DNA of 17,853 nt from Candidatus Wallbacteria bacterium (GCA_022703765.1 JAKJHQ010000001.1:1-17853); one strand, 5' to 3'. Shown: positions 1 to 17,853, counted from the stretch's first letter. Numbers and translations: made by a program. The notes: generated from the sequence alone by a model not told the origin.

Positions 1-2867
1 AAATTTGTCGTACTCGTCCGCTGGCGCATTCTCTTTTCTAACGCGTCAATTAAATTATCGCGCTTTTCAGCGATTTCGTCTTCTATCGCAAATATGTGCT
101 CGCGCATTTTCCGCTTTTTCTGCTCTAGCTTTGCGATCTGCTCCTGCAGGCCTCCCTGTTCCTCGAGAGTGGGCGCCTGCCTCGCCTGACGCTGAAGTTC
201 GCGTATCTGACGCTTTATGTCGTCGAGCTCCTTCTGGGCGGCAATCTCCATATCCTCGGCCCATTTATCGAGCTGGTCGCGAGCTTCGCTGAAGTGGCGA
301 TTATTTTCTTCAAGGTTTCTGGCGATCGTCGCATTGACATGACGCTCGGTTTCAAGTCTCAGTCTTTCGGCCGTTTTACCGTCGATTTTATCGAGCGCCT
401 GATTTACCGAAGCACCGCAGTTGAATAGTTTTTCGCATGTCTGATGATCTATATTGCCGCCGGAATCGTCAAAAGCTGAAAAGAGCAAATATTCATCACT
501 TTCAAACGAATCGATCTTTAAATGTGATAAATTAAGCCAGCCGGCCTTTCCTTTTAGGCCTTCAATGACGGTATTTTTAAAAGCATGGTTCGTAACATCG
601 AATGATACTTCCGAAGGCGGGCAATCGGCGTCTTTAGCGCGGTTTATTGAAAATTCGCCGAGCGGATGGCTCAGGCGGTATAAAAATTCACCGAGCGCAT
701 TATCTTTGTTTTTGGATATCAGATAATATGTTCCGATAGAAATTTTCTTGTCGGGTGTTTTAGAGAGCGCGAAGGCGAGTTTTTCATCGTCGAATTTAGC
801 GAACTCCGCGAGTGAATATTTCGTTACCGCCCAGAACAACCGGCCTATACGGTCTAATTTATCACGAGTGCCGAGTAAATTGACTTTAAGACGCTCATGA
901 ACGTCTTCATCGAAATGCTCGAGCAATAATTTACGGGTGTCCTTCATCTTAATCTTTATCTGTTCGTCAAGCTCCGCCTGCAATTTCGCGAACGCCGCTT
1001 CTATTTCGGCCGTACTCCTGCACTGCTGGTATATCTCGAGCACACGCCGCTCGAAATCGACGCCCGATTCAATCGAGCCCAGAACGTCGTCTGACGCGCC
1101 GAATAACCCTGTAAATAGATTAAACTTGTTTTCGAGCAATTCGTAAACACGCCTGTCGGCTTCGTTTTTTTCGTTTAAAAAATTGATGACGACGACGTCA
1201 TGCTTCTGACCATAACGGTGACATCTTCCTATGCGCTGCTCGATTCGCTGAGGGTTCCAGGGCAGATCGAAATTTATCACGAGCGAGCAGAATTGAAGGT
1301 TAATACCTTCAGAAGCCGCTTCTGTGGCGAGCATTATGCACGATTCATCACGGAAATGGTCAATTATGGCCGTGCGCGAATCGATGCTGCGCGATCCTGA
1401 AACGCGACCGGTTTTTTTGTTTTTTTCAACCCACTGGTTATAAATCGAAGTCGAGCCTGCGTCGTCATTGCTTCCATTGAATAACAATACTTTACCCGCA
1501 TAGCCGCTGGCCTCGAGAAATTCTTTAAGATAGTCCTGCGTTCTTCGCGATTCGGTAAAAATTACGGCTTTTTTAGCCGCGCCCATTTCTTCCATTTTTG
1601 TAAAGCCTATTTCAAGCGCTTTGATCAATGCTTTCGCTTTGGTATCGACGCCTATTCCTCGCGCCCAGCGAATGTAGCCCTCGATTTCGTCGATTTCGGC
1701 TTTTAATTTATTAATATCGATTTTCGGTTCTTCGGTATTGGCCGCTTCAAGCGCCTCATCGGATTTTTCTACTTCAAAGTCTTCCTCGTCTTCGAGTATT
1801 TCATCGAGCAGATCGTCGTCAAGCGTTTCATTCAATATCAATCGGTCAACGACGCCGGCATTTTTTTGGGTTTCTTCGAGAAGCCGCTTCAATCTGTCGC
1901 GCATGATCTCAAGAGTGCCGGCTACGGCCCGCGGCGACGACGCCAGAACTTTACGCACGATCAAAATCAAAAGATGCTTTTGGTTGTTCGGTATTGCATA
2001 ATTGTCATCTTTTTTTAAAAAGTCGGAAATGGCCTCGTATAATTTATGCTCCTGATCGGTAGGTTTAAAAGGCCTTGTTATAAGTTTTCTTTCGGTATAG
2101 CGAATGTATTCGAGCACCTGGCGCCGTAAAGTCCGCCAGCAGAAAGACCTGATTCGATGGCGCAGCCCTTCCAGATCGCCGCCGTAATTTACATATTGCG
2201 TCCGAAACGATGGAAGATCGCCGAAAAATCTTTCATCTATCAGCAGTGAAAGCCCGTATAATTCGAGCAGTGAGTTTTGCAGCGGCGTCGCCGTCAGCAA
2301 TACTTTTCGCCGGTCTTCGGTCGCCCATTTGATCTTCTGGCCTATGCGGTTACTCTGACGATAAGAGTTTCTTAACTTGTGCGCTTCATCTATTACCACA
2401 AGGTCCCAGGGCGTCTGTTTTATCACGTCAGCCTTCGCTCCGGCAAAATGCATGGAACAAACTACAACGGCATTATTTTTAAACGGATCAGGGTTTCCGT
2501 TTTTAACCTGTTCGCGGTGCGTTTTGGCATCGAGAACGGTCGTCGGAAGGTTGAATTTTTCTGAAAGCTCGATCGCCCATTGTTTTCTGATCGACGCTGG
2601 AGTGATTACAAGAATTTTTCTGCGCCTTTCAGCCCAATGCTGGCATATCACAAGCCCGGCTTCGATGGTCTTGCCTAGCCCGACTTCATCCGCCAGCAAA
2701 ACACCCTTAGAAAGAGGCGAGCGCAGAGCGAATATGGCAGCTTCTATCTGGTGCGGGTTCAAATCGACGCAGGCGTCGAAAAGCGCATTGCCGAGGCGGT
2801 CGATAGACCGGCCGCCGGTGCGCGAAAGCTCATAAGCGAAGTATTTGGCGTGAAATGGAGTGGTCAT
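1..2867 (-). CDS. SNF2-family (DEAH-box) helicase with a C-terminal coiled-coil extension. It is 3'-partial: the C-terminus lies beyond the window start.
   Basis: I translated the reverse complement by eye from the ATG at 2867-2865. The N-terminus reads MTTPFHAKYFAYELSRTGG...DLNPHQIEAAIFAL...LLADEVGLGKTIEAG (SNF2_N motif I, Walker A). A DEAH box (VVIDEAHKLRN) and a TATPLQNSLLELY block follow. The Helicase_C motifs ATEAASEGINLQ and WNPQRIEQRIGRCHRYGQ lie near nt 1200-1500. No stop appears in this frame down to position 1. The plus-strand ORFs the track lists in this region are shadow ORFs. Confidence 0.85.
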   Translation of the reverse strand, partial: MTTPFHAKYFAYELSRTGGRSIDRLGNALFDACVDLNPHQIEAAIFALRSPLSKGVLLADEVGLGKTIEAGLVICQHWAERRRKILVITPASIRKQWAIELSEKFNLPTTVLDAKTHREQVKNGNPDPFKNNAVVVCSMHFAGAKADVIKQTPWDLVVIDEAHKLRNSYRQSNRIGQKIKWATEDRRKVLLTATPLQNSLLELYGLSLLIDERFFGDLPSFRTQYVNYGGDLEGLRHRIRSFCWRTLRRQVLEYIRYTERKLITRPFKPTDQEHKLYEAISDFLKKDDNYAIPNNQKHLLILIVRKVLASSPRAVAGTLEIMRDRLKRLLEETQKNAGVVDRLILNETLDDDLLDEILEDEEDFEVEKSDEALEAANTEEPKIDINKLKAEIDEIEGYIRWARGIGVDTKAKALIKALEIGFTKMEEMGAAKKAVIFTESRRTQDYLKEFLEASGYAGKVLLFNGSNDDAGSTSIYNQWVEKNKKTGRVSGSRSIDSRTAIIDHFRDESCIMLATEAASEGINLQFCSLVINFDLPWNPQRIEQRIGRCHRYGQKHDVVVINFLNEKNEADRRVYELLENKFNLFTGLFGASDDVLGSIESGVDFERRVLEIYQQCRSTAEIEAAFAKLQAELDEQIKIKMKDTRKLLLEHFDEDVHERLKVNLLGTRDKLDRIGRLFWAVTKYSLAEFAKFDDEKLAFALSKTPDKKISIGTYYLISKNKDNALGEFLYRLSHPLGEFSINRAKDADCPPSEVSFDVTNHAFKNTVIEGLKGKAGWLNLSHLKIDSFESDEYLLFSAFDDSGGNIDHQTCEKLFNCGASVNQALDKIDGKTAERLRLETERHVNATIARNLEENNRHFSEARDQLDKWAEDMEIAAQKELDDIKRQIRELQRQARQAPTLEEQGGLQEQIAKLEQKKRKMREHIFAIEDEIAEKRDNLIDALEKRMRQRTSTTN

Positions 2868-2990
2868 TAATAATTCCGTCACTTAACCTGGATATTATAT
2901 AATACCGCTAAATTATACTATAATTTAAACAAAATATGAAGTAAAATTTGATAATTTAGCAATAAAAAAGCGACGAGTATTTTACTTATT
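2868..2990 (-). promoter_or_regulatory. AT-rich upstream region of the SNF2 helicase gene. It probably carries a sigma70-type promoter, including a minus-strand TATAAT around 2912-2917.
   Basis: A non-coding stretch with very low GC lies immediately 5' of the helicase ATG. On the minus strand the sequence reads ...tatagTATAATttagcgg.... I could not identify a clear -35 element. Confidence 0.3.
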
Positions 2991-3125
2991 CATGGCTCGG
3001 TTAAAATCCCGTATGCCTTATTTTTTCATGTGCTTATCTGAAAAAATTCGTCCATCGCCTCATATGGTATTTTTTCAATACCCTTGCTGGCGGCCGCTCG
3101 ATACCATTCGACCGGTTTGCCGCAT

Positions 3126-3159
3126 AGAAGTCTCGCCGGCGACTTCGAGAGACTTCAAT
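3126..3159. other. Near-perfect inverted repeat or hairpin (gaagtctc-N14-gagacttc, with an internal palindrome tcgccggcga) in the 290-bp gap between the FGE-like gene and the helicase promoter.
   Basis: Read directly from the sequence: gaagtctcgccggcgacttcgagagacttc. It has 8-bp arms and a self-complementary GC-rich core. No T-run follows, so it is not a canonical intrinsic terminator. Confidence 0.35.
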
Positions 3160-3282
3160 TATCGAAACGCTTAAATAACTGGCAATCCAGTCATGTGCTG
3201 ATGATTGTAGTTGCCGCTCATCATTGTGCCGTAACGAAAACACAAATATTTTTGTCATCGTCAATTTTGTTGAAATGTCATT

Positions 3283-4422
3283 TTAAGAAAGGCAAACTCT
3301 AAAACCGAGGCTGTTATTATGATATGAAGGGGTGAAATTAATATAGCGAAGGGCCGACCGGCAATTTTCGGGAAGGCTGTCCCAGCCGCCGCCGCGCGCG
3401 ACGCGATTAGATCCTGTGACGGGCCCTTCAGGGTCGGTCTGAAACTGTTTTGAATAACTGCCGTACCAATCGGCGCACCATTCCCAGACGTTGCCGCACA
3501 TGTCATATAATCCCCATTTGTTGGGTTTTTTAAGCCCTACCGGGCACGTCGATTTTGAATTCCCTGCATACCAGCAGTAATTTCCGTCAAAATCATATCC
3601 CCAGTAATGCGTCGAAGCAGTTCCGGCGCGGCATGCATATTCCCACTCGGCCTCGGAAGGCAGATGGAATTTTTCTTCAGCCAGTTTCATGCCGTTGAGT
3701 TTCACAATGAAATTCCGGCAATCGTTCCAGGAAACATTTTCCACGGGATGATTACGGCTCTTTTTAAAATGGCTCGGGTCGCTTTTCATGATTATTTTAT
3801 ATTGTTCACGGGTCACCGGGTATTTGCCGATCCAGAATCCTTTCGTGATTTTGACTTTATGCGCCGGCTTTTCATCATCGCGCCCGTTATCATCGCCCAT
3901 TATAAAAGCGCCAGGCGCAATATACAACATGTCGAGCGCAACGCCGGCGCCTAAATAAAAAGACCTGGCGGCGCCGGTTTTATAAACCTTAATTACAGGC
4001 GGATCAGCCGATGAATTTTCTTTTCGAGTGTAATTATCGCGGCCGTCGCGGCTATCGTTGCCATTGCGGTAATCATCCTCACGATTTGAATTGGATCGGT
4101 TAAAACGATCTTCAGTGATCAATTTCAAAGATAGCGCGATCAGATTAACCGTCGAACCGGCTAATTCGTTTTTTAATCCATGTTCTTCGGCTAAACGATT
4201 GGCAAGCCTTTTCAACAAGGACTCCAGCGGGATATTTTCGTTATAACTCAGCAATTCTTTCGCTACCCCGCTTCGAACCGCGGCCATGACAAGGTTTATC
4301 TCACGCTTATAAGCGCCGCAAAGGTCCTTTAGCAGACCTTCGAGCCTTTTTTCGTCAAGGTATATCAGATTTCCATGATTTTCTAATATTTCGAAAAGTT
4401 TAATTTTTACTAGATCATTCAT
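3283..4422 (-). CDS. Two-domain protein. The N-terminal ~100 aa form a helical adaptor-like domain that is shared with the TPR protein at 9156-10307. The C-terminal part is a formylglycine-generating-enzyme-like (FGE-sulfatase/SUMF1/DUF323) domain.
   Basis: A 379-aa ORF. The C-terminal part carries FGE-family hallmarks: HKVKITKGFWIGKYPVTREQY, VSWNDCRNF, LPSEAEWEYACRAG, YDMCGNVWEWCADWY, RVARGGGWDS and a terminal GFRVCLS. The start ATG overlaps the stop of the upstream gene in an ATGA arrangement at 4419-4422, which indicates translational coupling. Confidence 0.8.
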   Translation of the reverse strand: MNDLVKIKLFEILENHGNLIYLDEKRLEGLLKDLCGAYKREINLVMAAVRSGVAKELLSYNENIPLESLLKRLANRLAEEHGLKNELAGSTVNLIALSLKLITEDRFNRSNSNREDDYRNGNDSRDGRDNYTRKENSSADPPVIKVYKTGAARSFYLGAGVALDMLYIAPGAFIMGDDNGRDDEKPAHKVKITKGFWIGKYPVTREQYKIIMKSDPSHFKKSRNHPVENVSWNDCRNFIVKLNGMKLAEEKFHLPSEAEWEYACRAGTASTHYWGYDFDGNYCWYAGNSKSTCPVGLKKPNKWGLYDMCGNVWEWCADWYGSYSKQFQTDPEGPVTGSNRVARGGGWDSLPENCRSALRYINFTPSYHNNSLGFRVCLS

Positions 4423-4808
4423 CGGTCGCTACCGGAGCTGATGTTATCGATTGAGCCGGACAGTTCGCCTTTGCCGCCGCACCAGCGGCACGTCACGAAT
4501 TTTACGACGCCGTCCCAGCAGTTAATTTTGCCGCAGGAGCATTTGAATATACCTTTCGACTCGCAATAAGGGCAGCCTTTGTAAGTTTCACCAAAATCAA
4601 AACTGCCGGCTATCGTTGTTTTATCGTAGCCTTCTTTGCTGGCCTGGTTTTCTTTTACCGGAAACGCCCAATCGCCAATCCATCGGTTCCGTGATTTTTC
4701 CTCGAACCGTATGCCGTAGAGCTTGCCGGTTTTAAGGCAGCGAACGGCCGCGACGGCCACGTTAAGAAGCGGAAAGCCTTTTTCTTTATTTTCCCTGAAC
4801 TCGTTCAT
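4419..4808 (-). CDS. Small Cys-rich zinc-ribbon protein and fourth gene of the TerY-P-type operon.
   Basis: A 129-aa ORF containing CPYC...CSCGKINCWDG...CRWCGGKG. It lies 4 bp after the kinase stop and overlaps the next start. Its C-x-C-G...C-W-D pattern resembles the zinc ribbon in the C-terminal tail of the kinase (CKCGAEN...CWDC). Confidence 0.6.
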   Translation of the reverse strand: MNEFRENKEKGFPLLNVAVAAVRCLKTGKLYGIRFEEKSRNRWIGDWAFPVKENQASKEGYDKTTIAGSFDFGETYKGCPYCESKGIFKCSCGKINCWDGVVKFVTCRWCGGKGELSGSIDNISSGSDR

Positions 4809-4812
4809 TATG

Positions 4813-6129
4813 CTACGCCCTTATTTCGCCCGTGGCTTTGCCGAAGTTGATCTTCAGGCCGTTAAGTATCGGCGCGTTCCTGCCGGGCTCAACGTCTTTT
4901 AAAGTGCCGTCCGGCATTGTGATATTCCACTTTTCGCTCGAATCGTTCTTCAGACCCCATTGCCCCGGTTTATTCGGGTTTTGATTCACTTCGGCCACTA
5001 ATATTGAAAAATCGAAGATCTTACTGTGATCGTCGATGTGGTGAGGATGGATTTTAGTGTCGTAGTTGAGCATCACTATATTGCCGCCGATATTTATTCT
5101 CGGAGGAAGCGTCATCGCTTTCCGGCAATCCCAGCATGTAAGTGATTTATTCTTTTGAAGTTTTTCCTTATCATAAAAATTCTCGGCGCCGCACTTGCAG
5201 TACATTACCGAGTCGAGAAGCCTTATCAGGGCCATGCGCCATTCGCTTTCGCGCACCCGGCCGTTGACCGGATCTTTTATTCCGGTAGTAAAGGCTTTCA
5301 TGAAAAGGTTCTTGATGAATTCCGGATAAATATCCCAGAAGGCGATGGCGTTGTCGTGATAACCTTTTACCGGCCGGTTGGAGTCGTCCGCCGGATCGTA
5401 AATAAAGACGGGCTCGGTGCCGTAAAGTTTGTTCATGGCCGGCAGGTCGAAACATTTGATGTCCGACTCTTTCTTGCCCTCGAGCGGATGGCTGGTCATG
5501 AGTATGTAAAATAAAAGAACGGCGAGGGAGTAAAGATCGGTATCCTTGTTCGGCTTCGAATCGCCGCGAACGACCTCGGGCGCCATGAAGCGGGGAGTAC
5601 CGAGAACTCCGCCGTCGCTCTGGCCGTCAATCGACACGTTATCGTTGTCGCATATCAGGACTTCGCCCGTATTCGGGTCGAAAAAAGCATTGCCGAATGA
5701 AATATCCCTGTAGCAAAGGCCTTTTGAATGAAGCTGAAGAAAGCTGTTGGCTAGTTCGAAACCGACCCTCACGAGCACCGCTAATTTTGGCGATATGCGG
5801 CGTTTCATGAGGTCCACTATATTGCCGAACCTTTTCTCGCGCAGCGGCATGACGTATCCAAATCCGGGCGTTGACGACTCAGTGACGATCTCGGCCGGCC
5901 AGAGGAACCTGGCGTTAGGCGCGCCTTTTTCGATTAGTTTTTCAAGCGCGGTTCGCTGCTGAGGAGTGGCTGAATTAGGATAATACCATTTCAGCGCGAC
6001 CGCCTGCCCGCCCAGATCGGCCTTATAAACTTCGCCCTGGCCGCCGCCGCCTAAAAATTCTCCCACGCGGCAGTCTAATTTGGATATTTCAGTCTTGACG
6101 ACCTGATTTTTTTTTAAGATCTCGCTCAT
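4813..6129 (-). CDS. Atypical Ser/Thr protein kinase (the TerY-P kinase) with a C-terminal zinc-ribbon-containing extension.
   Basis: Glycine loop LGGGGQGEVYKA and a VAIK-equivalent, VALKWY. The catalytic-loop motif is CYRDISFGN (YRD instead of HRD), and ICDNDN replaces DFG. An APE motif is present (GTPRFMAPE). A C-terminal ~150 aa segment contains CKCG...CWDC. Confidence 0.85.
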   Translation of the reverse strand: MSEILKKNQVVKTEISKLDCRVGEFLGGGGQGEVYKADLGGQAVALKWYYPNSATPQQRTALEKLIEKGAPNARFLWPAEIVTESSTPGFGYVMPLREKRFGNIVDLMKRRISPKLAVLVRVGFELANSFLQLHSKGLCYRDISFGNAFFDPNTGEVLICDNDNVSIDGQSDGGVLGTPRFMAPEVVRGDSKPNKDTDLYSLAVLLFYILMTSHPLEGKKESDIKCFDLPAMNKLYGTEPVFIYDPADDSNRPVKGYHDNAIAFWDIYPEFIKNLFMKAFTTGIKDPVNGRVRESEWRMALIRLLDSVMYCKCGAENFYDKEKLQKNKSLTCWDCRKAMTLPPRINIGGNIVMLNYDTKIHPHHIDDHSKIFDFSILVAEVNQNPNKPGQWGLKNDSSEKWNITMPDGTLKDVEPGRNAPILNGLKINFGKATGEIRA

Positions 6130-6188
6130 AATATCAACCTTTTTACTTCGCGAAAATTTTTGTGAACTAAACTTTTCGAGTTATTACC

Positions 6189-7112
6189 CTATATGTATTT
6201 TTTGTAGTCTTTTATTATCATTCCCAGAGTGACGTCGTCGCCCGACATTTTAGCCGAAGCTTCCAGCCATTCCCTGATGCTGCATTCTGTCGAGACCGCG
6301 CCTTCGCTTCGTAAAATGTCCAGAATGTCCTTTCCTACCTTAAAAAAATTATCATCATCACGGAATGAGTTGGAATAACCGTCGGTCGAGATCAGTATCA
6401 GCTCGGGAAATTTAAAATCAGCATTCACCGGGTAGAATTTAATTCGGAACTCGTTCCACGGGTCTTTCGAACAAAACGAAGTGGTTTCGTTGGCGATGAG
6501 TTTTTCGTCCCTGGCGACCGCCCTGACCGTCGTTCCGTCCTCGTAAACGCTTAAAATATCGCCGTCGCCGAGCTGCATGTAAAACATGAACGCATTATGA
6601 ATGCCGGCCATCAGAAGCGTCGAACCGTAAACTATTTTATTGTCCTTTAAAACTGCCTCGACGGACCTCGCATCCGACTTTTTCTCTAATTCCTTCAATT
6701 CTTCTTCGGTAAACGGGTTTCTTGAAACGTCGGTCTCGACCTCTTCGCGCCAGGCCTGAACGATCTTACGCGGGAGCCTGTTCTCGAGTTCGTCTTTGAT
6801 AAGGGACAGATTGTCGATATTATTCTTCGAGCATTCGTCAAAAAAATCCCTGACGGCTCTCACGGCTACTTTGACCGCATACTCCGAGCCGGTATGGCTT
6901 CTGAAACTCTTGACGCTTCCATGGCCGTCGGATATGGCCAGGACCAGAGGAATTGTATGGCCGGCAGCACATTCCGTCACCCAGTGGTTTTCGGCGTCCT
7001 GATTCTTGAGCCCCACCCGGGCGTGGGACGAGCCTATGACGCTTCCTGATATGATATTCCACGAAACGATCTTTTTATCGATCTGGTCGGGCATAAATTT
7101 TTCGATCACCAT
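6189..7112 (-). CDS. PP2C-family Ser/Thr phosphatase (the TerY-P phosphatase).
   Basis: PP2C motifs are present: GLKNQDAE, LAISDGHGS, QLGDGDI and ISTDGYSNSF. The start overlaps the vWA gene end by 7 bp. Confidence 0.85.
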   Translation of the reverse strand: MVIEKFMPDQIDKKIVSWNIISGSVIGSSHARVGLKNQDAENHWVTECAAGHTIPLVLAISDGHGSVKSFRSHTGSEYAVKVAVRAVRDFFDECSKNNIDNLSLIKDELENRLPRKIVQAWREEVETDVSRNPFTEEELKELEKKSDARSVEAVLKDNKIVYGSTLLMAGIHNAFMFYMQLGDGDILSVYEDGTTVRAVARDEKLIANETTSFCSKDPWNEFRIKFYPVNADFKFPELILISTDGYSNSFRDDDNFFKVGKDILDILRSEGAVSTECSIREWLEASAKMSGDDVTLGMIIKDYKKYI

Positions 7113-7807
7113 ACGTCGCCAGAACCGGCGGGATCCTGGGCCGGCGCCTGCGGAATAGGAACGTTGGTCGAGCCGTTCTGGGCGTCTTTAGCCTGGCTGG
7201 CAGGCGCGGAAGCCGATTTAAGGACGGCGGTAGAGACCCATTTAATATATTTAACGAGCGATTCGGGATTATTCGCCTCGAGCGGCTTTATCTCCGGATG
7301 GCCGATGAACTTCTGCAGCACGTCTTTATCGGCATCGGAGCCTATGGCTATCGATATGCGGACCGATTTTCTGCCCCAGGGCAGATCCATAAGTTCTTTC
7401 AGGCCGGACGCATAATCGTCCGTCGGCTGGCCGTCGGAGATCAGTACCAGCACGGGAGGCAGCGCCCTGTCCGACATCGGGGGGATCTTTAACTGTTCAG
7501 CCGTCATTTTAAGCGCGTGGCCGAGATCGGTAACGCCATCCGCGCTGAGGTCGGACCATTTGAAATCTCTGACCGGCGTCGGCTGCGTAATGTGCCACTG
7601 GGCACCGCTGGAAAACTTTATGGCGCGCACCAGCACTTCGGCGTTGGGGTTCTCGTCCGCTACTTTTTGCATGTGAGGTATAGACTCGCGTATTGCGTTA
7701 TTCAGAGACTGGATTTTGCCGTCAACACTCATCGAGCCCGAGCAGTCGCAGATCCATATAAAATGAAGCGGACGGGTCGCAAGCTCGCCGCCTGGAAGTT
7801 TTGCCAT
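7106..7807 (-). CDS. TerY-like von Willebrand factor A (vWA) domain protein, the first gene of the TerY-P triad.
   Basis: A MIDAS motif (DCSGSMS, i.e. DxSxS) follows a hydrophobic strand (HFIWICD). The vWA motif LVLISDGQPTDD is present. On the minus strand a GGAGGA RBS (plus-strand tcctcc at 7817-7822) sits about 9 nt upstream of the ATG. Confidence 0.85.
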   Translation of the reverse strand: MAKLPGGELATRPLHFIWICDCSGSMSVDGKIQSLNNAIRESIPHMQKVADENPNAEVLVRAIKFSSGAQWHITQPTPVRDFKWSDLSADGVTDLGHALKMTAEQLKIPPMSDRALPPVLVLISDGQPTDDYASGLKELMDLPWGRKSVRISIAIGSDADKDVLQKFIGHPEIKPLEANNPESLVKYIKWVSTAVLKSASAPASQAKDAQNGSTNVPIPQAPAQDPAGSGDVW

Positions 7808-10472: not shown

Positions 10473-12560
10473 ATGCAGGAATATTCGAATTTAATAAATC
10501 TTACGATGTGCTGCTTAATAGGCATTGCATTTTTGATTTTCAGGATATCTCTGATCATCCCCATCAAGAATTTGAGGAAAAAACTTACATTTATCAATAA
10601 CAGGCTGACCTTATTCAAGTTCAATGACGAAACCGAGCTGGCCGTATTTTTAAAAGAAAATTTTAAAAATTTCGCCACACTTGCGGAAATTTATACGGAC
10701 TTCATAGAAGAAAGGTCTTTGAATATAATTGAATATTCTGGCAAAACATACAGCCACATCAAACATTCCGATTTTTTCAGCGCCGAAAATATTTCAGAAA
10801 AATTGCTCAATTTAAGGATGATAAATTCCATACCCGGCATAATGACAGGCCTTGGCATACTTGGCACCTTCATCGGCCTTATAATAGGCATTTCTTCAAT
10901 CCATATAACGAAGGGCGAGATATTACTAAACGACATTCAATCCCTTCTGTCGGGCATGAACATAGCCTTCTTAACTTCGATCGTTGGAATAATACTCGGA
11001 CTGTACTGGATCCTTAATGAAAAGCGCCATTATAAGAACCTTTTGATCGAGATTGAAAAATTTAATATCAACATAGAAAAGTACTATCCGACGATAGATC
11101 TCGAGCACATCATCATAAAAAGCATGATCTCGAACATTAAGAACAACGAGATCCTGCCCCAGAAATTTGAAAGCGTAAATAAGACGCTTGAGCTGACGGC
11201 CGACAGGATAATCGAATCTCAAAACAAAAGTTTCTCTTTGATATCATCGAGCATAAACTCAGGTCTTAAAGACGAATTCCTGCCTGAAATAAAGAAAGCG
11301 ATCGATCAATCGTTCGAATACACCAATAAGGCGATGAGCTTTCTGACGGAGTTCACCGCGACGCTTGACACACTGAAAGACGATCTTTTGAGGGTTAGCG
11401 CGGAGCACAAAGAGAACGCAATAACCGTCAAAACCGAGATCAAAGCCATAATGAACTCCATAAAGGAAAGTTTCGAGATAACTTCTAAATTCAGGGATTT
11501 CGCCAAGACGCTCAACGCAACGTTTGAAAAGGCGACGGGCAACATGAATCAAACTGTAAATAAAATGAATGAATTTTCAAATAAAATAGTCGAGTCGGCC
11601 GATAAATTCGAGGCCGGGTTAAATCAGTTCTCTGAAAAATTTCTGAACGGGAAACAGCAGGTCGAGATAAATATCAAAAAACTAGCGTCAGAAATATCGA
11701 TTTTGACTAATAGCTTCAATGATACTTTTGAAAAGATCAAGGTCGAAGCGGTTGATTTCAGCGGCGAACTCGATCGTATCGTTCATAAGGCCATTTTCAT
11801 ATTCAACAAACAACTCAGCTGCTATGAAGGCCTGCCAAATAAAATAGCGGACGTCGTGGCCAACAAGATCAACAGGGCGTTCGACAGCAACAAACTCGCA
11901 GATTCGGTAAAGGCGATAAGCGACGAGCTGGTGATCAAGTTTATCGGTATAAAGGATATGCTGAAGAACGCGACCGACAGCCTCGGCGGCAGCATCGCCA
12001 ATCTGGGCGACACCTTTGAAGTATATTCGCAGCAGATGAAAAGCCTGCCGGAAGATATCAGCATTGAAATATCCAAAAAAATCCAGACCGCGTTCGACAG
12101 TTCTGATAACTTCAAGATGTTCGGCGAGTTCAAAAACTCTCTTAATGAATTTAACAATAATTTCTCGGCGCAGGTCAAGGAAGCCGCCAGGGCCATCGGC
12201 GGCTCAGTAATGTCGAGCGTCAAGGACATTGAGTCGTTCCTCATGAAGACCAATAAGATTTTTGGCGATTTCCAGCGTTCCATAAATGGCATCGAAGACA
12301 AAATGCGCGAGACAGGCGAATTCTTAGAGAAATCAGCCGGCCTGCTGGGAACGAACCTGAGCCAAAGTTTCAACCAGACATTCTCCGTTTTTGACGAGCA
12401 GTTGTCAAAAATTTCAATGCGCCTGAGTGGCACTATAACGGAGATCGATTCAGCGGTTAAGGATATTCCAGCAGTGATAAACGAATTTCAGAACGCGCTC
12501 GACTCGCAGATCGGTTTAATCCAAAAGGAAGCGGTAAAAAATAATAATTTAAAACAATAA
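10473..12560 (+). CDS. zorA: ZorA-like protein, with a MotA/TolQ/ExbB-type proton-channel transmembrane core and a ~500-aa cytoplasmic coiled-coil tail.
   Basis: 695 aa. The transmembrane segments are LINLTMCCLIGIAFLIF, SIPGIMTGLGILGTFIGLIIGISSI and GMNIAFLTSIVGIILGLYWIL, a MotA/ExbB-like signature. A long heptad-rich alpha-helical tail follows. The gene sits immediately upstream of a MotB/OmpA partner, as in Zorya. Confidence 0.75.
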   Translation: MQEYSNLINLTMCCLIGIAFLIFRISLIIPIKNLRKKLTFINNRLTLFKFNDETELAVFLKENFKNFATLAEIYTDFIEERSLNIIEYSGKTYSHIKHSDFFSAENISEKLLNLRMINSIPGIMTGLGILGTFIGLIIGISSIHITKGEILLNDIQSLLSGMNIAFLTSIVGIILGLYWILNEKRHYKNLLIEIEKFNINIEKYYPTIDLEHIIIKSMISNIKNNEILPQKFESVNKTLELTADRIIESQNKSFSLISSSINSGLKDEFLPEIKKAIDQSFEYTNKAMSFLTEFTATLDTLKDDLLRVSAEHKENAITVKTEIKAIMNSIKESFEITSKFRDFAKTLNATFEKATGNMNQTVNKMNEFSNKIVESADKFEAGLNQFSEKFLNGKQQVEINIKKLASEISILTNSFNDTFEKIKVEAVDFSGELDRIVHKAIFIFNKQLSCYEGLPNKIADVVANKINRAFDSNKLADSVKAISDELVIKFIGIKDMLKNATDSLGGSIANLGDTFEVYSQQMKSLPEDISIEISKKIQTAFDSSDNFKMFGEFKNSLNEFNNNFSAQVKEAARAIGGSVMSSVKDIESFLMKTNKIFGDFQRSINGIEDKMRETGEFLEKSAGLLGTNLSQSFNQTFSVFDEQLSKISMRLSGTITEIDSAVKDIPAVINEFQNALDSQIGLIQKEAVKNNNLKQ

Positions 12561-12638
12561 TTTAAAGAAACAACAACAGAAGCAAAAGTAAAAACTATAT
12601 TAACAATAATAGTTAATAATACAAATATAGGTATCAAC

Positions 12639-13460
12639 TTGTTCAACAAGCAATTAAAACAACACGATTTAAGCGATAAAAACGACTTTCTCATCTCGAT
12701 CTCAGACCTGATGACCGGGATAATGATGATCTTCGTGCTCACCCTTATCGCGGTCTTATACAGCAAAACGACCGATGTGGTTCAATACGTAAGAGAAATC
12801 GAGGCCAAGAAGGAAACATTAGCTAAAATACAATCCGAACTCGACCATAAAACCGAACAATTAAAGCTTAAAGAAAACGCGCTCGACTCAAAGGAGATCG
12901 AACTAAAATATTACAAAGACCAGATCGAAAAAATTATAGGCATCAAGAGCTCTATAATCAATCTGATCAAGGAAAAATTCGAACGGTCGTCGTCTAATCT
13001 GAAACTGGCAGTCGATCCGTTCACAGGGGCGATCCGGATAAGCGGCGATATTTTATTCGATACCGACTCCGACGCCATTAAAGAAGAATTCAAGCCTCTG
13101 CTAAAACTGCTGCTGGAAACTTACGTCAACATCCTATTCGACACTCAGGAGTTCATAGACCATCTCGCAGAAATAGTCATAGAAGGCCATGCGGACAACC
13201 GCGGCGACTACATTTATAATCTTGATCTTTCGCAGCGCCGCGCGCAGTCTATCATGAAATATTTCATTCAGGTGGTCGATCCGGCCAAAAAAGAGCTTTT
13301 CCAGAAATTCGTGACGGCGAACGGCAAATCGTTCAGCGTTCCGATCAAAGACCCGACCGGGAACGTCGATCTTGACAAATCACGCCGCATCGAGGTCAAA
13401 TTCAGGTTAAAGGACGACGAGGCGTTGAAAGAACTTTCGAAATTACTGGATCAAAAATAA
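12639..13460 (+). CDS. zorB: ZorB-like protein, with a MotB-type plug and transmembrane helix plus a C-terminal OmpA-like peptidoglycan-binding domain. The start codon is TTG.
   Basis: 273 aa. The DFLISISDLMTGIMMIFVL segment (MotB plug and transmembrane helix; compare the ZorB/MotB WISYADLMT motif) is present. The OmpA-like motifs GHADNRGDYIYNLDLSQRRAQSI are also present. Confidence 0.8.
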   Translation: MFNKQLKQHDLSDKNDFLISISDLMTGIMMIFVLTLIAVLYSKTTDVVQYVREIEAKKETLAKIQSELDHKTEQLKLKENALDSKEIELKYYKDQIEKIIGIKSSIINLIKEKFERSSSNLKLAVDPFTGAIRISGDILFDTDSDAIKEEFKPLLKLLLETYVNILFDTQEFIDHLAEIVIEGHADNRGDYIYNLDLSQRRAQSIMKYFIQVVDPAKKELFQKFVTANGKSFSVPIKDPTGNVDLDKSRRIEVKFRLKDDEALKELSKLLDQK

Positions 13461-13477
13461 GCGGGCAGTGACAAACT

Positions 13478-14689
13478 ATGGCATCCGACTCGAATCGCGA
13501 CAAGGGAATATTTATAAATTTAAGCAGCTGCACGCCGACCAGACTTATCGAAGCGGCCGAGACGATCGCGCGTACGCATAAGCGGCACTCTAAAAATGAC
13601 GAGACGCTTTCGGCCGCGTCGGGGCCCGACAACTTTGACGAATTGCTCAAGAAGATAAAGCGCGGGGGCCGCAACGAACTCGTTAAAATAGCGTTCGCGC
13701 TCACCAGGCGGGAGGCTTTATTTTTATTGACCGCTTTAAAGAACGAAGATGATTCATTCTGCGATAAAGTCCTCGCCATAGTAGGACTTCGCAGACAGAT
13801 ATTCAAATTCTCGCTTTTCTGGAACGCGCTGGTGTTATCGCCCGAAAATAAAAATCTTTATTCATTGACGATCGCAACCACGTCGGCCGGAGGCGATCAA
13901 AAAAGGCCGGGCACGGAGGGCATAAATATGGTCGAAGCAGAGAGATTTTTCATCAAAAGTCAGCCGGCCTCTTTCATCGACGGCCTATTCATTTTATACC
14001 AGAATAAAAAATACATATTGAGTAACTTTTGCGCCTATTATTCGATACACAAAGACGGCTTTTTACACGGGCTGATGATAAAGAAGATTATGACGGGGTA
14101 CGAGCCTGAATTCGGAAGGCTTGAGGGCGACATCCAAATTTTTTCATATTTAACGAAGCACCTGTCAAAAGAAGAGGCGATTCAATTCGCCGGAAAATAT
14201 TTCAGCCAGACACCCGACGATGCCTGGAACGAGTTGATATTGAATTATTTTTTCCACCTGCTCGGAACGCCTTCCAACATGGACAACTGGAATTTCGTCA
14301 CGGGACCGGTTCTGAAAAAACTGCAGAACAGATACAGCATCGCCGAGATAAGAAAATTTTTCGACAAGCTCGACAAAGACAACGTCCGGTTCAACTTCTG
14401 GCAAAAGAACTACGGCCAGCGCTTCACGAACGCCTATAAATTCAGCCAGATAAACGCCATTCTAATGTATATCGAAAACATCGCGATCCTCGAATTCGCC
14501 AACATCGGCAACGCCTGTTACGTTTATAAAGCCGAATTCGCCGACCTGCTGATCAGAAAATTTTACAACTCATCATACGAGTCAAAACTGAAATATCCAG
14601 AACAAGCTCTGTTCAGGGTCATACACAAGCAGGACTGGCAGTACGAAGCGCTCGCGAGGATAAATAGCGCTATAGGTAATAAAATCTAA
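13478..14689 (+). CDS. Hypothetical 403-aa protein co-directional with zorAB. It may be a ZorC-like (EH-signature) protein or a novel Zorya partner. I found no nuclease or NTPase motifs.
   Basis: An ORF lies 17 bp after zorB on the same strand. The sequence is alpha-helical and aromatic-rich with no HNH, Walker or PD-(D/E)xK motifs. The ZorC-like assignment rests only on position and length. Confidence 0.55.
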   Translation: MASDSNRDKGIFINLSSCTPTRLIEAAETIARTHKRHSKNDETLSAASGPDNFDELLKKIKRGGRNELVKIAFALTRREALFLLTALKNEDDSFCDKVLAIVGLRRQIFKFSLFWNALVLSPENKNLYSLTIATTSAGGDQKRPGTEGINMVEAERFFIKSQPASFIDGLFILYQNKKYILSNFCAYYSIHKDGFLHGLMIKKIMTGYEPEFGRLEGDIQIFSYLTKHLSKEEAIQFAGKYFSQTPDDAWNELILNYFFHLLGTPSNMDNWNFVTGPVLKKLQNRYSIAEIRKFFDKLDKDNVRFNFWQKNYGQRFTNAYKFSQINAILMYIENIAILEFANIGNACYVYKAEFADLLIRKFYNSSYESKLKYPEQALFRVIHKQDWQYEALARINSAIGNKI

Positions 14690-14708
14690 TCATTTAAAAT
14701 CAGGACTT

Positions 14709-15239
14709 TTATATATCATCTTCTTCGTCTTCTTGTTCAAATCTTCGTTCGCCTTCATACCGATCATAATATCCGTTATTTTCTTCAAATTCCTCCTCTT
14801 CAGTTATTTCTTTGAGCCTCCTTGTATATTCTAAGTAATCTCTTTCTTCATCAGCACTTATTTCATATTCAATCTCCTCTTCTTTTCTGAGACATATTTC
14901 TTCGTCATCATCCATAAGATCATCTAGATCGATTTCATAATCTCCTGATTCATGTATAATTTGTTCTTCGACATCACGATCTATTTCCTCTTCAGTTAAA
15001 TTTTCTATTTCTTCTTCATCAATTTCCTTTTCTTTTAAGTATTCTTTTTCTTCCTTTTCTTTTTCTCTTTCTTCTTTATTTCTAATTTCTCCTTCGGTTT
15101 CTTCAATATCACAACCACATATAGGACATTCACCGTCATCAGTTATATAACCATAATAACCACATTCCGGACAAGTAACTTCATCATCAAACAATATTAT
15201 ACTCCTATTTTCAAAACGTTGAAAAACATGATTATTCAA
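14709..15239 (-). CDS. Hyper-acidic zinc-ribbon protein (N-terminal CPEC...CPICGC followed by a ~130-aa Glu/Asp-rich tail). It is a candidate DNA mimic or regulator.
   Basis: 176 aa. About 45% of residues are D or E after the zinc ribbon. The gene is very AT-rich, with GAA/GAG codon runs. It starts 7 nt after the SF1 helicase stop. Confidence 0.65.
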   Translation of the reverse strand: MNNHVFQRFENRSIILFDDEVTCPECGYYGYITDDGECPICGCDIEETEGEIRNKEEREKEKEEKEYLKEKEIDEEEIENLTEEEIDRDVEEQIIHESGDYEIDLDDLMDDDEEICLRKEEEIEYEISADEERDYLEYTRRLKEITEEEEFEENNGYYDRYEGERRFEQEDEEDDI

Positions 15240-15246
15240 TCAGCAG

Positions 15247-16998
15247 TTATAATTTTTCAGAGTTTATAACTTCAGAACTCTCAATAATCTTCTTAAATAT
15301 TTCCGTTTCATCTTTCGAGAAGTAATTCTGGTTCAAAAGATAATCTCGGTTTCCAACAATTATCAGTAATTCTTTAGCACGCGAAAGTGCAACATTGATT
15401 AACTCTTTTCTTGCAGTAAGTCTTGTCGGTTTAACTTCGTCGTCGCAGATATTCATAATAATGACGCTTTTTTCCTGGCCCTGAAATGAATGAATCGTCG
15501 ATACCTGTACTTGTTCAAAATACTCTGGATTGATTTTAATGAGTTCAGTGGACTTTGCGAGAACCTCTTTAATTTTGACTATCTGGGCGTTATAAGGTGC
15601 GATAATGCCAATTTCTTCAGATTTAAATTCCTTATTGTTTACAAGTTTAATTGTTATTCCGGCAATCGCTTCGGCATGCTTTTCATTGAATCTTCTTTCT
15701 TCCGTTCCATTTATAACGGCGCCGTTTATGTTTTCAATTTTTCCCTTACAATTTATAAACACTATATTGCTTTTGAAAGTTCCTTTAATGTCTTTTTTTG
15801 CCGTGCCCGTCTTTAACTCGCCTTCGTAAAATAGATCGCTTACAAGATTTCCAATCGGCTCCTGCATCCTGTACTGCGTATCGAGAAATGCTGTTCTTTC
15901 GTCGTGCCGTTCAACCTTTGCCATATCAAAAATATTCCGGCTAAACCAGGCATTCGGCTTGTCGGCGTCATCCGGGAATATAGGAGGAAGCTGCATGGGA
16001 TCTCCACCCAGAACCACGCCTTTTTTGGCGTAATAACAAGCCGCGATGATTGCCGGTATGCTGGCCATGGACATTTCGTCTGCAATAACGAAATCAACCG
16101 GACCCGGATCAGCGGTTTTAGGCGAGGCAAGCGACGCAAAGTTAGTGGCTACGCAGGTACAAAGGCTCACATGCTCGTTCCATGTAAAAGCGTTTCGCTT
16201 GATCCTATATTGCCTGTTCTGATATATGTCTCGGCTAAAAATCTTTACCGAATCATGCATATTATCAACGCTGCCCGTTCTTGCGACCGTAATATTGAAT
16301 TTGTTGAGCGGCGAGGCTGATTCCAGTGTAGATATGAGGAGCTGGTCCAGTGCCTTATTTGATAAAGCGGTCAGCAAAACCCGCTTACCGTTTTTTATAA
16401 GATGAGATGCGAGAGCGCCCATAGTTTTGGTTTTTCCGGTTCCAGGCGGCCCCCATACGAATGTGATATTTTGCGATAATGCTTTTTTGACGGCCTTTAT
16501 TTGAGATTCGTTAAGTTTATCGGCGGCAAATGCAGCGACGACTTCCTTATGATCAGATAAAACCGATTTATCGAGTAGTGACGATACTATCTCGTTTGGG
16601 TTTGTCGAATTAATCGTCAAAAAATTCAAAAGATCGGCGGTTAATCTTCTGCCGTCCATAATATAATCGATTCCAAAATCTGTAATTTGTCGCAGATTAA
16701 AATTATCTATCCCGCTCGATCTTAAAACCGCTTTTTCAAATGTTACTTTAACCCCGTTTGAAACTTTTTCGAACTTTCCGTTAACGAATAGATCGCCGAC
16801 CCTGAACAACGGCTCATAAACGTATTTAATGTCTCTTAAAACCCTTTCGGGCGCGTTACGAAAAACAACTGAATAAGACCCGTCTGAATCGCTTTCACCA
16901 GCCTTTCCATACATAAAATAGCGGGCGCGGTTACGCGGCTCATCGAGACGGGTAATTTCAGATTTAACCGACTCCTGTATTTCATTAAGGTCAATCAT
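15247..16998 (-). CDS. Upf1/DNA2-like SF1B helicase (AAA_11/AAA_12 type).
   Basis: Q-motif LNESQIKAV, Walker A FVWGPPGTGKTKT, Walker B VIADEMSMAS, motif III VLGGDPMQLPPI, motif IV DTQYRMQEPIG, motif V VSTIHSFQGQEKSVII and motif VI VALSRAKELLIIVG. The start overlaps the upstream gene by 8 nt. Confidence 0.9.
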   Translation of the reverse strand: MIDLNEIQESVKSEITRLDEPRNRARYFMYGKAGESDSDGSYSVVFRNAPERVLRDIKYVYEPLFRVGDLFVNGKFEKVSNGVKVTFEKAVLRSSGIDNFNLRQITDFGIDYIMDGRRLTADLLNFLTINSTNPNEIVSSLLDKSVLSDHKEVVAAFAADKLNESQIKAVKKALSQNITFVWGPPGTGKTKTMGALASHLIKNGKRVLLTALSNKALDQLLISTLESASPLNKFNITVARTGSVDNMHDSVKIFSRDIYQNRQYRIKRNAFTWNEHVSLCTCVATNFASLASPKTADPGPVDFVIADEMSMASIPAIIAACYYAKKGVVLGGDPMQLPPIFPDDADKPNAWFSRNIFDMAKVERHDERTAFLDTQYRMQEPIGNLVSDLFYEGELKTGTAKKDIKGTFKSNIVFINCKGKIENINGAVINGTEERRFNEKHAEAIAGITIKLVNNKEFKSEEIGIIAPYNAQIVKIKEVLAKSTELIKINPEYFEQVQVSTIHSFQGQEKSVIIMNICDDEVKPTRLTARKELINVALSRAKELLIIVGNRDYLLNQNYFSKDETEIFKKIIESSEVINSEKL

Positions 16999-17853
16999 AA
17001 TTTATTCTCGGTAATACTCTATAATTTCCGTTTTCCCAATCCTTATAAGGATTATCCAATATATTCCTCCAGGCTTCGTAAGGATTTTGAATTATTTCTA
17101 CCTGCGATTCCGACTTGCCGACGTTATAAACTTTGCAAATGTAATAATTTTCCTTCAATTCTTTTGCTTTCTTCCACTGCGCCCTGCTCGGCATTACCCA
17201 ATTATCCGTTTTAACTTCAAAATACTTACGAATTCCGTTTTCTGTAACGTCGATGTCTCTTCCAATGGCATTAACTTTTGAGCTGTTGACCAATTCTAAT
17301 TTTAATATTTCTTTTCCGTCGTCAATCAGCGCGAAAATATTTTCGCCATCGCAAGTTTTCCAGGTTGCGGACGGGTATAATTCTTTATAATATACTTCTT
17401 TTAAAAACTTAATTACAGTTAATTCTCCTCTGAACCCAATATTTTTCAATGACTCAGGGTTGCTCATTTTTCTTTTTTTTACGCCCGTAGTTGCGGTTTC
17501 TTCATTATCACATTCATATTGAAAATCATCAGAACATTTTGTATCGCTAGATGTGGCTCTGGTTACTTTAACATCATCGATTTTGCTGCATTCCGGCACC
17601 CAAATTTCGTTATTGAATTTTTCAGTTTGGTCAACAGACGAAGGCCTTTTTTTTGTACTCTTTTCATTAATTTCCCCTACTTTAGACGTACTTTCATCGA
17701 TCTGAATTTCAGTTTTTCCCCTTTTTCTTCTGAGAGCTTCGTTCAAATCTTCGATATCAAGTTCCAAAGCTATTTTAAGCTTGTCTCTGCATTTGTCGTC
17801 GCTTATTTTATTGATTGCTTCAAGCAATGAATCCTGCATAAAACTTAATTCTT
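16991..17853 (-). CDS. DUF3883-like protein with a restriction-endonuclease-fold (PD-(D/E)xK) domain. It may be 5'-partial: the frame is open upstream of the ATG at 17839 to the window end.
   Basis: The C-terminal part reads GRDIDVTENGIRKYFEVKTD...YYICKVYNV, which matches the DUF3883 core (D-x-D ... E-V-K-T, then Y-x-x-Y-x-V). A basic, low-complexity N-terminal half is present. There is no in-frame stop between 17839 and 17853, so the true start may lie beyond the window. Confidence 0.6.
   Translation of the reverse strand, partial: ELSFMQDSLLEAINKISDDKCRDKLKIALELDIEDLNEALRRKRGKTEIQIDESTSKVGEINEKSTKKRPSSVDQTEKFNNEIWVPECSKIDDVKVTRATSSDTKCSDDFQYECDNEETATTGVKKRKMSNPESLKNIGFRGELTVIKFLKEVYYKELYPSATWKTCDGENIFALIDDGKEILKLELVNSSKVNAIGRDIDVTENGIRKYFEVKTDNWVMPSRAQWKKAKELKENYYICKVYNVGKSESQVEIIQNPYEAWRNILDNPYKDWENGNYRVLPRINYD

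Follow-up and report, generated by a model that had tools for sequence, protein, structure and literature searches.

A hyper-acidic zinc-ribbon protein in an exchangeable slot behind a TmtA-like and helicase gene pair: a candidate nucleic-acid-like competitor

What might a small, almost half acidic zinc-ribbon protein contribute to a nuclease-helicase defence operon? The question is raised by a minus-strand open reading frame (ORF) at 14709..15239 of a 17,853-nucleotide (nt) stretch of DNA from Candidatus Wallbacteria bacterium (GCA_022703765.1 JAKJHQ010000001.1:1-17853), which was analysed over its whole length and is called the window below. The initial annotation read the product as a possible DNA mimic, which could restrain the neighbouring helicase and nuclease as an auto-inhibitor or antitoxin. 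Our comparisons indicate instead that the protein is an exchangeable accessory, encoded by a real gene in a slot that related operons fill with other genes or leave empty. We tentatively propose that it competes electrostatically for nucleic-acid-binding surfaces, a role that we rank first among the readings considered, but regard as possible rather than probable.

Counted from its first TTG, the ORF comprises 176 codons. This length is not a matter of chance, since stops would be expected at about 10% of codons for this base composition and the calculated probability of 176 open codons is ~1e-8. The open frame is as first described, but the protein is most likely shorter. Gene callers use a form of 161 residues (aa) beginning MFDDEV, as does the NCBI record of the protein (hypothetical protein BWY32_01660 of the metagenome-assembled genome 'bacterium ADurb.Bin243'). 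Its start codon, a TTG at 15194-15192, follows 7 nt behind an AGGAG at 15206-15202, and the homologous locus L007 keeps AGGAG-N7-TTG TTT GAT GAT exactly as in the window. Over the 15 codons (40-odd nt) that precede this TTG the reading frame differs between the two loci, and the ratio of nonsynonymous to synonymous divergence (dN/dS) for the pair is ~0.8 for the first 45 aligned codons and 0.29 for the remainder. The conserved AGGAG-N7-TTG, the differing leader frames and the weaker constraint over the first 45 codons make TTG 15194 the most likely true start, giving a product of 161 rather than 176 aa.

Both forms have a calculated isoelectric point (pI) of 4.05, a calculation that the initial annotation had proposed, with net charges of -52 for the 176-codon form and -53 for the 161-aa form. 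Aspartate and glutamate (D+E) make up 41% and 44% of these two forms, respectively, and 47.7% of residues 47-176 in the longer one, in good agreement with the ~45% originally estimated for some 130 residues. The translation of the 176-codon form includes FDDEVTCPECGYYGYITDDGECPICGCDIEE near its beginning, and a Glu/Asp-dominated tail thereafter. The fetched loci, 1.9 Mb in all, supplied a comparison set of 5142 further mechanical ORFs with a minimum length of 80 aa, in which D+E never exceeds a fraction of 0.26; against this set the acidic ORF is a clear compositional outlier. On the coding strand GC content is 0.31 and purine content 0.68, values that match the low GC and purine richness first reported. 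The purine richness arises from GAA, GAT and AAA codons, with GAA accounting for 46 of the 51 Glu codons and GAT for 18 of the 21 Asp codons. The low GC, by contrast, is not special to this gene, as the full upstream TmtA-like gene also stands at 0.31.

The only homologue, P0002, is encoded at L007 in the same slot and is 72-78% identical to the window protein. It holds the reading frame across a 13-codon indel, an in-frame deletion in the Glu/Lys-rich linker, and two further small indels. Nei-Gojobori dN/dS for this single pair is 0.42 (bootstrap 95% confidence interval 0.24-0.76, with 0.2% of replicates reaching 1), and differences at the first, second and third codon positions number 20, 14 and 35. 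These comparisons identify the acidic ORF as a real coding gene under purifying selection. The tail (dN/dS 0.29) is better conserved than the N-terminus, and it contains invariant blocks of up to ~30 residues, which argues for a specific interaction rather than for bulk charge.

The acidic gene closes a series of three co-directional genes, following a TmtA-like gene, whose product has a nuclease-like domain, and a superfamily 1 (SF1) helicase gene. The helicase gene ends 7 nt before the long form of the ORF and 52 nt before its likely start, and it shares 8 nt with the preceding TmtA-like gene in the window (and in L006, a contig 100% identical to it) and in L149, against 4 nt in L150. There is no terminator-like site between the operon genes. 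We found no promoter belonging to the acidic gene itself: the sole good match of sigma-70 type coincides in part with the ribosome-binding site, and transcription from it would begin past the start codon. The gene is therefore probably co-transcribed as the third member of a TmtA-like and SF1 helicase defence operon, and the operon linkage claimed at the outset is borne out by this layout. Locus L007 repeats the arrangement, with its acidic gene behind the helicase.

Related operons show that the third position is polymorphic. In L149, whose helicase is 87% identical, the DNA is collinear with the window on both flanks; homology breaks at 15251, at the helicase stop, and returns at 14694, past the stop of a ZorC-like gene that converges on the operon. 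The slot intervals compared were 14694-15251 in the window, 7290-7939 in L149 and 340-845 in L007. The 650-bp slot of L149 encodes an unrelated protein of 206 aa, with a pI of 6.2 and no family match. The ZorC C-termini of L149 and L007 are 99% identical, yet the acidic gene is present in L007 only and the 206-aa gene in L149. In L150 (helicase 61% identical) the gene after the TmtA-like and helicase pair encodes a tetratricopeptide-repeat (TPR) protein of 230 aa, with no Zorya module nearby, and in L151 (60%) a Dev_Cell_Death-AAA gene stands directly after the helicase, with no small gene. Two further loci, L155 and L157 (58-59%), have a double-zinc-ribbon protein instead of the TmtA-like protein as helicase partner; after the helicase come convergent genes and no small gene in L155, while in L157 a TPR protein stands there. 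Neither kind of partner gene occurs in L152 and L154 (46-48%). No other hyper-acidic ORF was found across the fetched loci, which include ~150 related helicase loci; the background loci in this count come from genome and metagenome scans on generic Walker-A-type patterns, and their helicases are 22-35% identical. Around the slot there are no flanking repeats, recombination sites or mobility genes, only low-complexity internal repeats.

Taken across these operons, the interval from the helicase stop to the ZorC stop acts as a cassette slot, occupied by unrelated genes or by none. Because it is replaced in L149 and L150 and empty in L151 and L155, the comparison identifies the acidic protein as an exchangeable accessory and no conserved part of either the nuclease-helicase pair or the Zorya module. 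An N-terminal docking motif seemingly shared by the different slot proteins and the TmtA-like protein (MNNFDLDD at L149 7328, MENFDELL at L150 11776, MNDFNELI at L006 657) was rejected, as it probably reflects AT-rich codon composition.

Similarity searches gave the family a very narrow distribution. A word-indexed search of 5.8 billion protein clusters returned nothing beyond the protein itself and P0002, and an exhaustive profile search with HMMER, run over 1.84 billion representatives, contributed just two further proteins, P0123 and P0124, which share the generic CPxCG...CPxCG ribbon alone. P0124 carries a C-terminal C3H2C3 RING-like cysteine pattern. There were no relatives among GenBank phages (tblastn) or in IMG/VR (two scans), and no match at threshold in Pfam, PADLOC or NCBIfam. 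A Pfam scan at E <= 10 yielded generic zinc-ribbon and other weak matches, with no Ocr, ArdA, YacG (PF03884) or delta (HARE-HTH) among them; one of the weak matches, to OapC (E = 1.2), was set aside as probably composition-driven. A sequence-profile search of the PDB gave nothing below E = 0.9. Foldseek found no match at E <= 0.001 in the PDB or BFVD, its alignments spanning only the ~25-residue ribbon, a negative that carries little weight because the AlphaFold2 (AF2) model used is too poor. These searches describe an essentially orphan family, confined to two closely related uncultured lineages. The initial annotation would have been undercut by a lack of conservation, and the outcome is divided: a single close homologue occupies the same slot, and there is none elsewhere.

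P0123 merits a separate remark. It is a protein of 827 aa with nine ribbons of the form ECPECGY..DD.FCPxCGYEI, between which lie E/K/P-rich linkers and helix-extended-helix (SAP/Rho_N-like) segments, so that a zinc ribbon with an acidic linker appears here as a mini-module reused elsewhere.

The N-terminal C4 zinc ribbon recognised at the outset (CPEC...CPICGC) is present, and the knuckles CPEC-x11-CPIC are unchanged in both homologues, with every Cys kept. The two CxxC knuckles expected of a C4 ribbon thus have invariant ligands, AF2 places short strands (β-hairpins) at both of them, and by HMMER the ribbons repeated along P0123 show the same pattern of knuckles. Since Pfam Zn_ribbon_3 and Zn_Ribbon_1 match the ribbon only below threshold, the assignment is made at the level of the motif and not of a curated family. 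The protein contains seven motifs of three acidic residues followed by a hydrophobic one ([DE]3-hydrophobic), most of them within the tail, and its C-terminal tip is an acidic run closed by a hydrophobic residue, EDEEDDI in the window and EDDDDL in P0002. The AF2 model, run on an alignment of 2 sequences, is of low confidence (mean predicted local distance difference test score, pLDDT, 64; predicted template-modelling score, pTM, 0.22). Its helices span residues 35-56, 60-65, 68-80 and 90-149, the last of them long and with local pLDDT rising to ~88. The model has no tertiary packing or compact fold, but it does not have the strength to rule out a folded oligomer. In a charge-hydropathy plot the protein falls far into the disordered side (charged fraction 0.55, net charge per residue -0.33). 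The tail is accordingly predicted to be largely helical or disordered.

How does such a protein compare with known polyanions? Known DNA mimics are mostly compact anti-restriction proteins of phages or plasmids. Among them Ocr (T7 gp0.3) and ArdA, both small and with a pI of ~4, occupy DNA-binding sites electrostatically in the conflict of phages and plasmids with host nucleases. The acidic protein is likewise small, very acidic and placed in the arena of defence. However, Ocr and ArdA have compact rigid folds, are ~25-30% acidic and lack a zinc site, whereas the acidic protein has 44-48% acidic residues, a predicted extended or disordered state, and a zinc ribbon; moreover, they derive from a phage or a plasmid leading region and it derives from a host defence operon. 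It shares neither sequence nor fold similarity with them and is not a member of their families.

A closer parallel is offered by YacG, which has an acidic tail attached to a zinc finger and keeps gyrase, an ATP-dependent DNA enzyme, from binding DNA. YacG likewise carries a C4 zinc module at the N-terminus with the acidic tail behind it and is, for a zinc-anchored acidic brake of a DNA motor, the closest analogue in both architecture and mechanism, but it has only ~65 aa and a short tail, and the Pfam scan described above gave no YacG match. The delta subunit of RNA polymerase (RpoE, from Firmicutes such as Bacillus) competes with nucleic acids through its C-terminal half, which is polyanionic and disordered and drives DNA or RNA off the enzyme. 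With ~170 aa it is close in size to the acidic protein and, like it, joins a small folded N-terminal domain to a polyanionic C-terminal half; unlike it, its N-terminal domain is a HARE-HTH rather than a zinc ribbon, its genomic context is another one, and no sequence match links the two. The acidic C-terminal tips of SSB (DDDIPF-type), T7 gp2.5 and T4 gp32 bind within basic pockets on helicases and nucleases, and EDEEDDI and EDDDDL resemble them; these tips are short, so that the likeness could be compositional, and the acidic protein is without the OB fold. No acidic zinc-ribbon protein is known as a component of Tiamat or Zorya, consistent with the missing PADLOC match. It is the combination of a zinc ribbon, an almost half acidic sequence, a largely non-globular appearance and a host gene within a defence operon that sets the protein apart from YacG, delta, Ocr and ArdA.

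Based on the above data, we suggest, tentatively, that the acidic protein is a dispensable accessory polyanion acting as an electrostatic, nucleic-acid-like competitor or modulator. The extreme charge density, the conservation of the tail above that of the N-terminus, and the precedents set by delta, YacG, Ocr/ArdA and the SSB and gp2.5 tips point in this direction. The acidic tail would occupy a basic DNA- or RNA-binding surface as an electrostatic competitor, and the conserved hydrophobic residues inside the acidic motifs would confer specificity. The target would most likely be the operon's own helicase or nuclease, damped until infection, in which case the protein would serve as a dispensable brake or tuner; alternatively, it could be a phage DNA-binding protein for which the acidic protein acts as bait. 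With either target the protein would be a dispensable modulator, neither a core subunit nor an obligatory antitoxin. A rigid mimic of the Ocr kind is not supported by the AF2 model, which is itself too weak to exclude one.

Several observations weigh against this proposal. The family has two members only, among billions of proteins, so the evidence for selection amounts to one pairwise comparison. Neither Pfam, the PDB nor Foldseek yields a homology or fold match to any DNA mimic, and the low-confidence AF2 model lacks a rigid surface that could set charges at the spacing of phosphates. In addition, the presumptive partners are not notably basic overall, the helicase having a pI of 8.0 and the TmtA-like protein one of 5.6. 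If the tail does act as a nucleic-acid-like competitor, it would represent a host-encoded, zinc-anchored and largely disordered polyanion in a defence operon, a solution unlike that of the known mimics, and the exchangeable third-gene slot would give a handle on the tuning or specificity of nuclease-helicase defence modules. For the present, it is an orphan accessory gene of two uncultured lineages, dispensable in relatives.

An unlikely alternative, though one to be taken seriously, is that the gene is independent cargo (a decoy, an anti-defence remnant or a selfish insert) lodged in a recombination-prone junction of two convergent defence operons, without any tie to its neighbours. The slot does extend exactly from the helicase stop to the ZorC stop and carries unrelated genes in near-identical backgrounds. 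Synonymous divergence (dS) is also compatible with more recent exchange: between window 14709-15194 and L007 346-825 it is only 0.32, against 1.11 in the flanking helicase and 1.40 in the ZorC-like gene, with similar dN. This low dS is, however, due in part to the extreme GAA/GAT codon bias; the remainder could reflect more recent cassette exchange, and a constraint at the nucleotide level, for example from overlap with the convergent ZorC transcript, may also contribute. The N-terminal 50-70 residues further show a weak likeness to phage families of unknown function, with marginal PHROG matches to phrog_4852 (E = 1.5e-4) and phrog_9700 (E = 5e-4), but the phage and viral collections searched contain no relatives. 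The absence of flanking repeats and mobility genes, and the lack of a promoter other than the sigma-70-like match that overlaps the ribosome-binding site, also speak against self-contained cargo.

The obligatory antitoxin or auto-inhibitor of the initial annotation would neutralise a toxic nuclease-helicase pair stoichiometrically, until phage components displace it. This hypothesis is weakened by our comparisons and now seems improbable. It draws on the tight co-directional linkage of the gene to helicase and nuclease, and on the fact that classical antitoxins are frequently small and acidic. Yet the same enzyme pair occurs without the gene in relatives, which disfavours an obligatory role: with helicases 58-87% identical, the gene is replaced or absent in L149, L150, L151 and L155, a near-neutral 206-aa protein or a TPR protein standing beside the related pair in the first two and no small gene in L151. 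No hyper-acidic ORF lies beside any of the ~150 related helicase loci, the gene comes last in its operon, and its slot is swapped between near-identical backgrounds.

We consider it about equally doubtful that the ORF is young or decaying, a purine-rich spacer of low complexity that gained a zinc knuckle and has little or no function. A family of two among 5.8 billion clusters, the low-complexity imperfect repeats inside the gene, the indel within the Glu/Lys stretch and a dN/dS of 0.42, compared with 0.09-0.15 for the neighbouring genes, would all suit such an origin. Against it, dN/dS is significantly below 1, the bootstrap replicates reaching that value as rarely as stated above; the zinc ligands, the Shine-Dalgarno sequence and the 30-residue tail blocks are invariant; and the chance of even 161 open codons is very low at this base composition.

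Nor is it probable that the protein is a cation buffer (for Mg2+, Ca2+ or Zn2+) or a chaperone-like polyanion that escorts a basic partner, with no mimicry of nucleic acid. Histone chaperones and acidic zinc-ribbon carriers of the LysW type bind basic enzyme surfaces, the carboxylate density is extreme, and LysW figures among the faint, non-significant ribbon alignments, together with Nop10 and NZF fingers; but these alignments (E > 1) do not extend beyond the generic ribbon of ~25 residues, and the neighbourhood consists of nucleic-acid enzymes and defence genes rather than of metabolism. Least credible to us is a polymorphic bait or adaptor slot whose occupants (206-aa protein, TPR protein or zinc-ribbon polyanion) are specificity modules that can replace one another. 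The acidic one would then be a nucleic-acid decoy encoded by the host; it would use its [DE]3-hydrophobic motifs and SSB-like tip to trap an SSB-interacting protein or a DNA-binding protein of a phage and so release or license the nuclease-helicase pair, possibly together with the abutting Zorya module that lacks ZorD.

The surroundings of the acidic gene are listed in Table 1. The complete TmtA-like gene is found in L006, where it forms the pair with the helicase at 657-5571. Its product combines a sacsin-type (GHKL) ATP-binding domain with a C-terminal NOV_C restriction-endonuclease-like domain and matches PADLOC PDLC03972 (TmtA) with E = 4.8e-78 over residues 27-646; the fragment contained in the window matches C-terminally. 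The upstream gene thus matches TmtA models over its N- and C-terminal parts. Because PADLOC represents Tiamat by a single protein, TmtA, and the gene found here is a shorter TmtA-like one that overlaps a dedicated SF1 helicase gene, the pair looks like a two-gene variant of Tiamat. The helicase itself belongs to a family of proteins of ~580 aa, with ~110 relatives listed at 37-87% identity, nearly all of them full-length. No structured RNA or tRNA was found in the window.

Table 1. Coordinates of the acidic gene, its parts and the neighbouring features in the window.
Feature	Position	Strand	Remarks
Acidic zinc-ribbon coding sequence, most likely form	14709..15194	-	161 aa, TTG start 15194, stop 14711-14709; gene callers and NCBI, conserved AGGAG/TTG, dN/dS 0.42
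In-frame 5' extension, probably untranslated leader	15195..15239	-	Holds AGGAG 15206-15202; frames differ between window and L007
C4 zinc ribbon CPECG-x11-CPICGC	15111..15173	-	Residues 8-28 (161-aa form); Cys invariant in homologue, AF2 β-hairpins
Glu/Lys-rich linker, length variable	15045..15110	-	Residues 29-50; 13-codon deletion in P0002, AF2 helix
Conserved acidic-hydrophobic tail	14712..15044	-	Residues 51-161, ~48% D/E, [DE]3-hydrophobic repeats, tip EDEEDDI
SF1 (Upf1/DNA2-like) helicase, 583 aa	15247..16998	-	Pfam AAA_11, AAA_12; PADLOC similarity to MkoA/MkoC helicase regions
C-terminal part of 1056-aa sacsin-type ATPase and NOV_C protein, TmtA-like	16991..17853	-	Runs off window; Pfam SACS, NOV_C, NCBIfam P_loop_sacsin, PADLOC TmtA
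ZorA	10473-12560	+	PADLOC, Pfam
ZorB	12639-13460	+	PADLOC, Pfam
ZorC-like EH-signature gene	13478-14689	+	PADLOC; NCBIfam and Pfam EH_Signature below threshold
DrmD-like (DISARM) SNF2 helicase, at least 960 stop-free codons	3..2882	-	Runs off left window end; PADLOC
FGE-sulfatase-domain protein	3283-4422	-	Follows TerY-P-like array
Small TerY_C metal-binding protein	4419-4808	-	TerY-P-like set
Ser/Thr kinase	4813-6129	-	TerY-P-like set
PP2C phosphatase	6189-7112	-	TerY-P-like set
vWA protein	7106-7807	-	TerY-P-like set

A plus-strand ZorABC-like module (10473..14689) converges on the acidic gene and ends 19 nt from its stop. ZorA and ZorB clearly match type I Zorya models, and the third gene bears a weak EH signature like that of ZorC, its NCBIfam score being 27 bits against a cut-off of 490. 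The full ZorABCD set is not found here, as no ZorD is adjacent: the only SNF2 protein in the window scores as DrmD with E = 1.6e-208 and far more weakly as ZorD, at 2e-31. The Zor module also converges on the TmtA-like and helicase operon in L149, and in L007 as far as that short contig extends. Two by-products of this layout may be of more general interest than the acidic gene, namely a cassette-like slot between convergent defence operons and a ZorABC module that abuts a nuclease-helicase pair and has no ZorD.

The gene content of the rest of the window identifies it as a defence island. No DISARM genes other than the DrmD-like one were seen within it, and it also encodes a DUF4236 protein and a TPR protein. 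The co-directional TerY-P-like array at 3283-7807 on the minus strand may represent another defence or signalling module.

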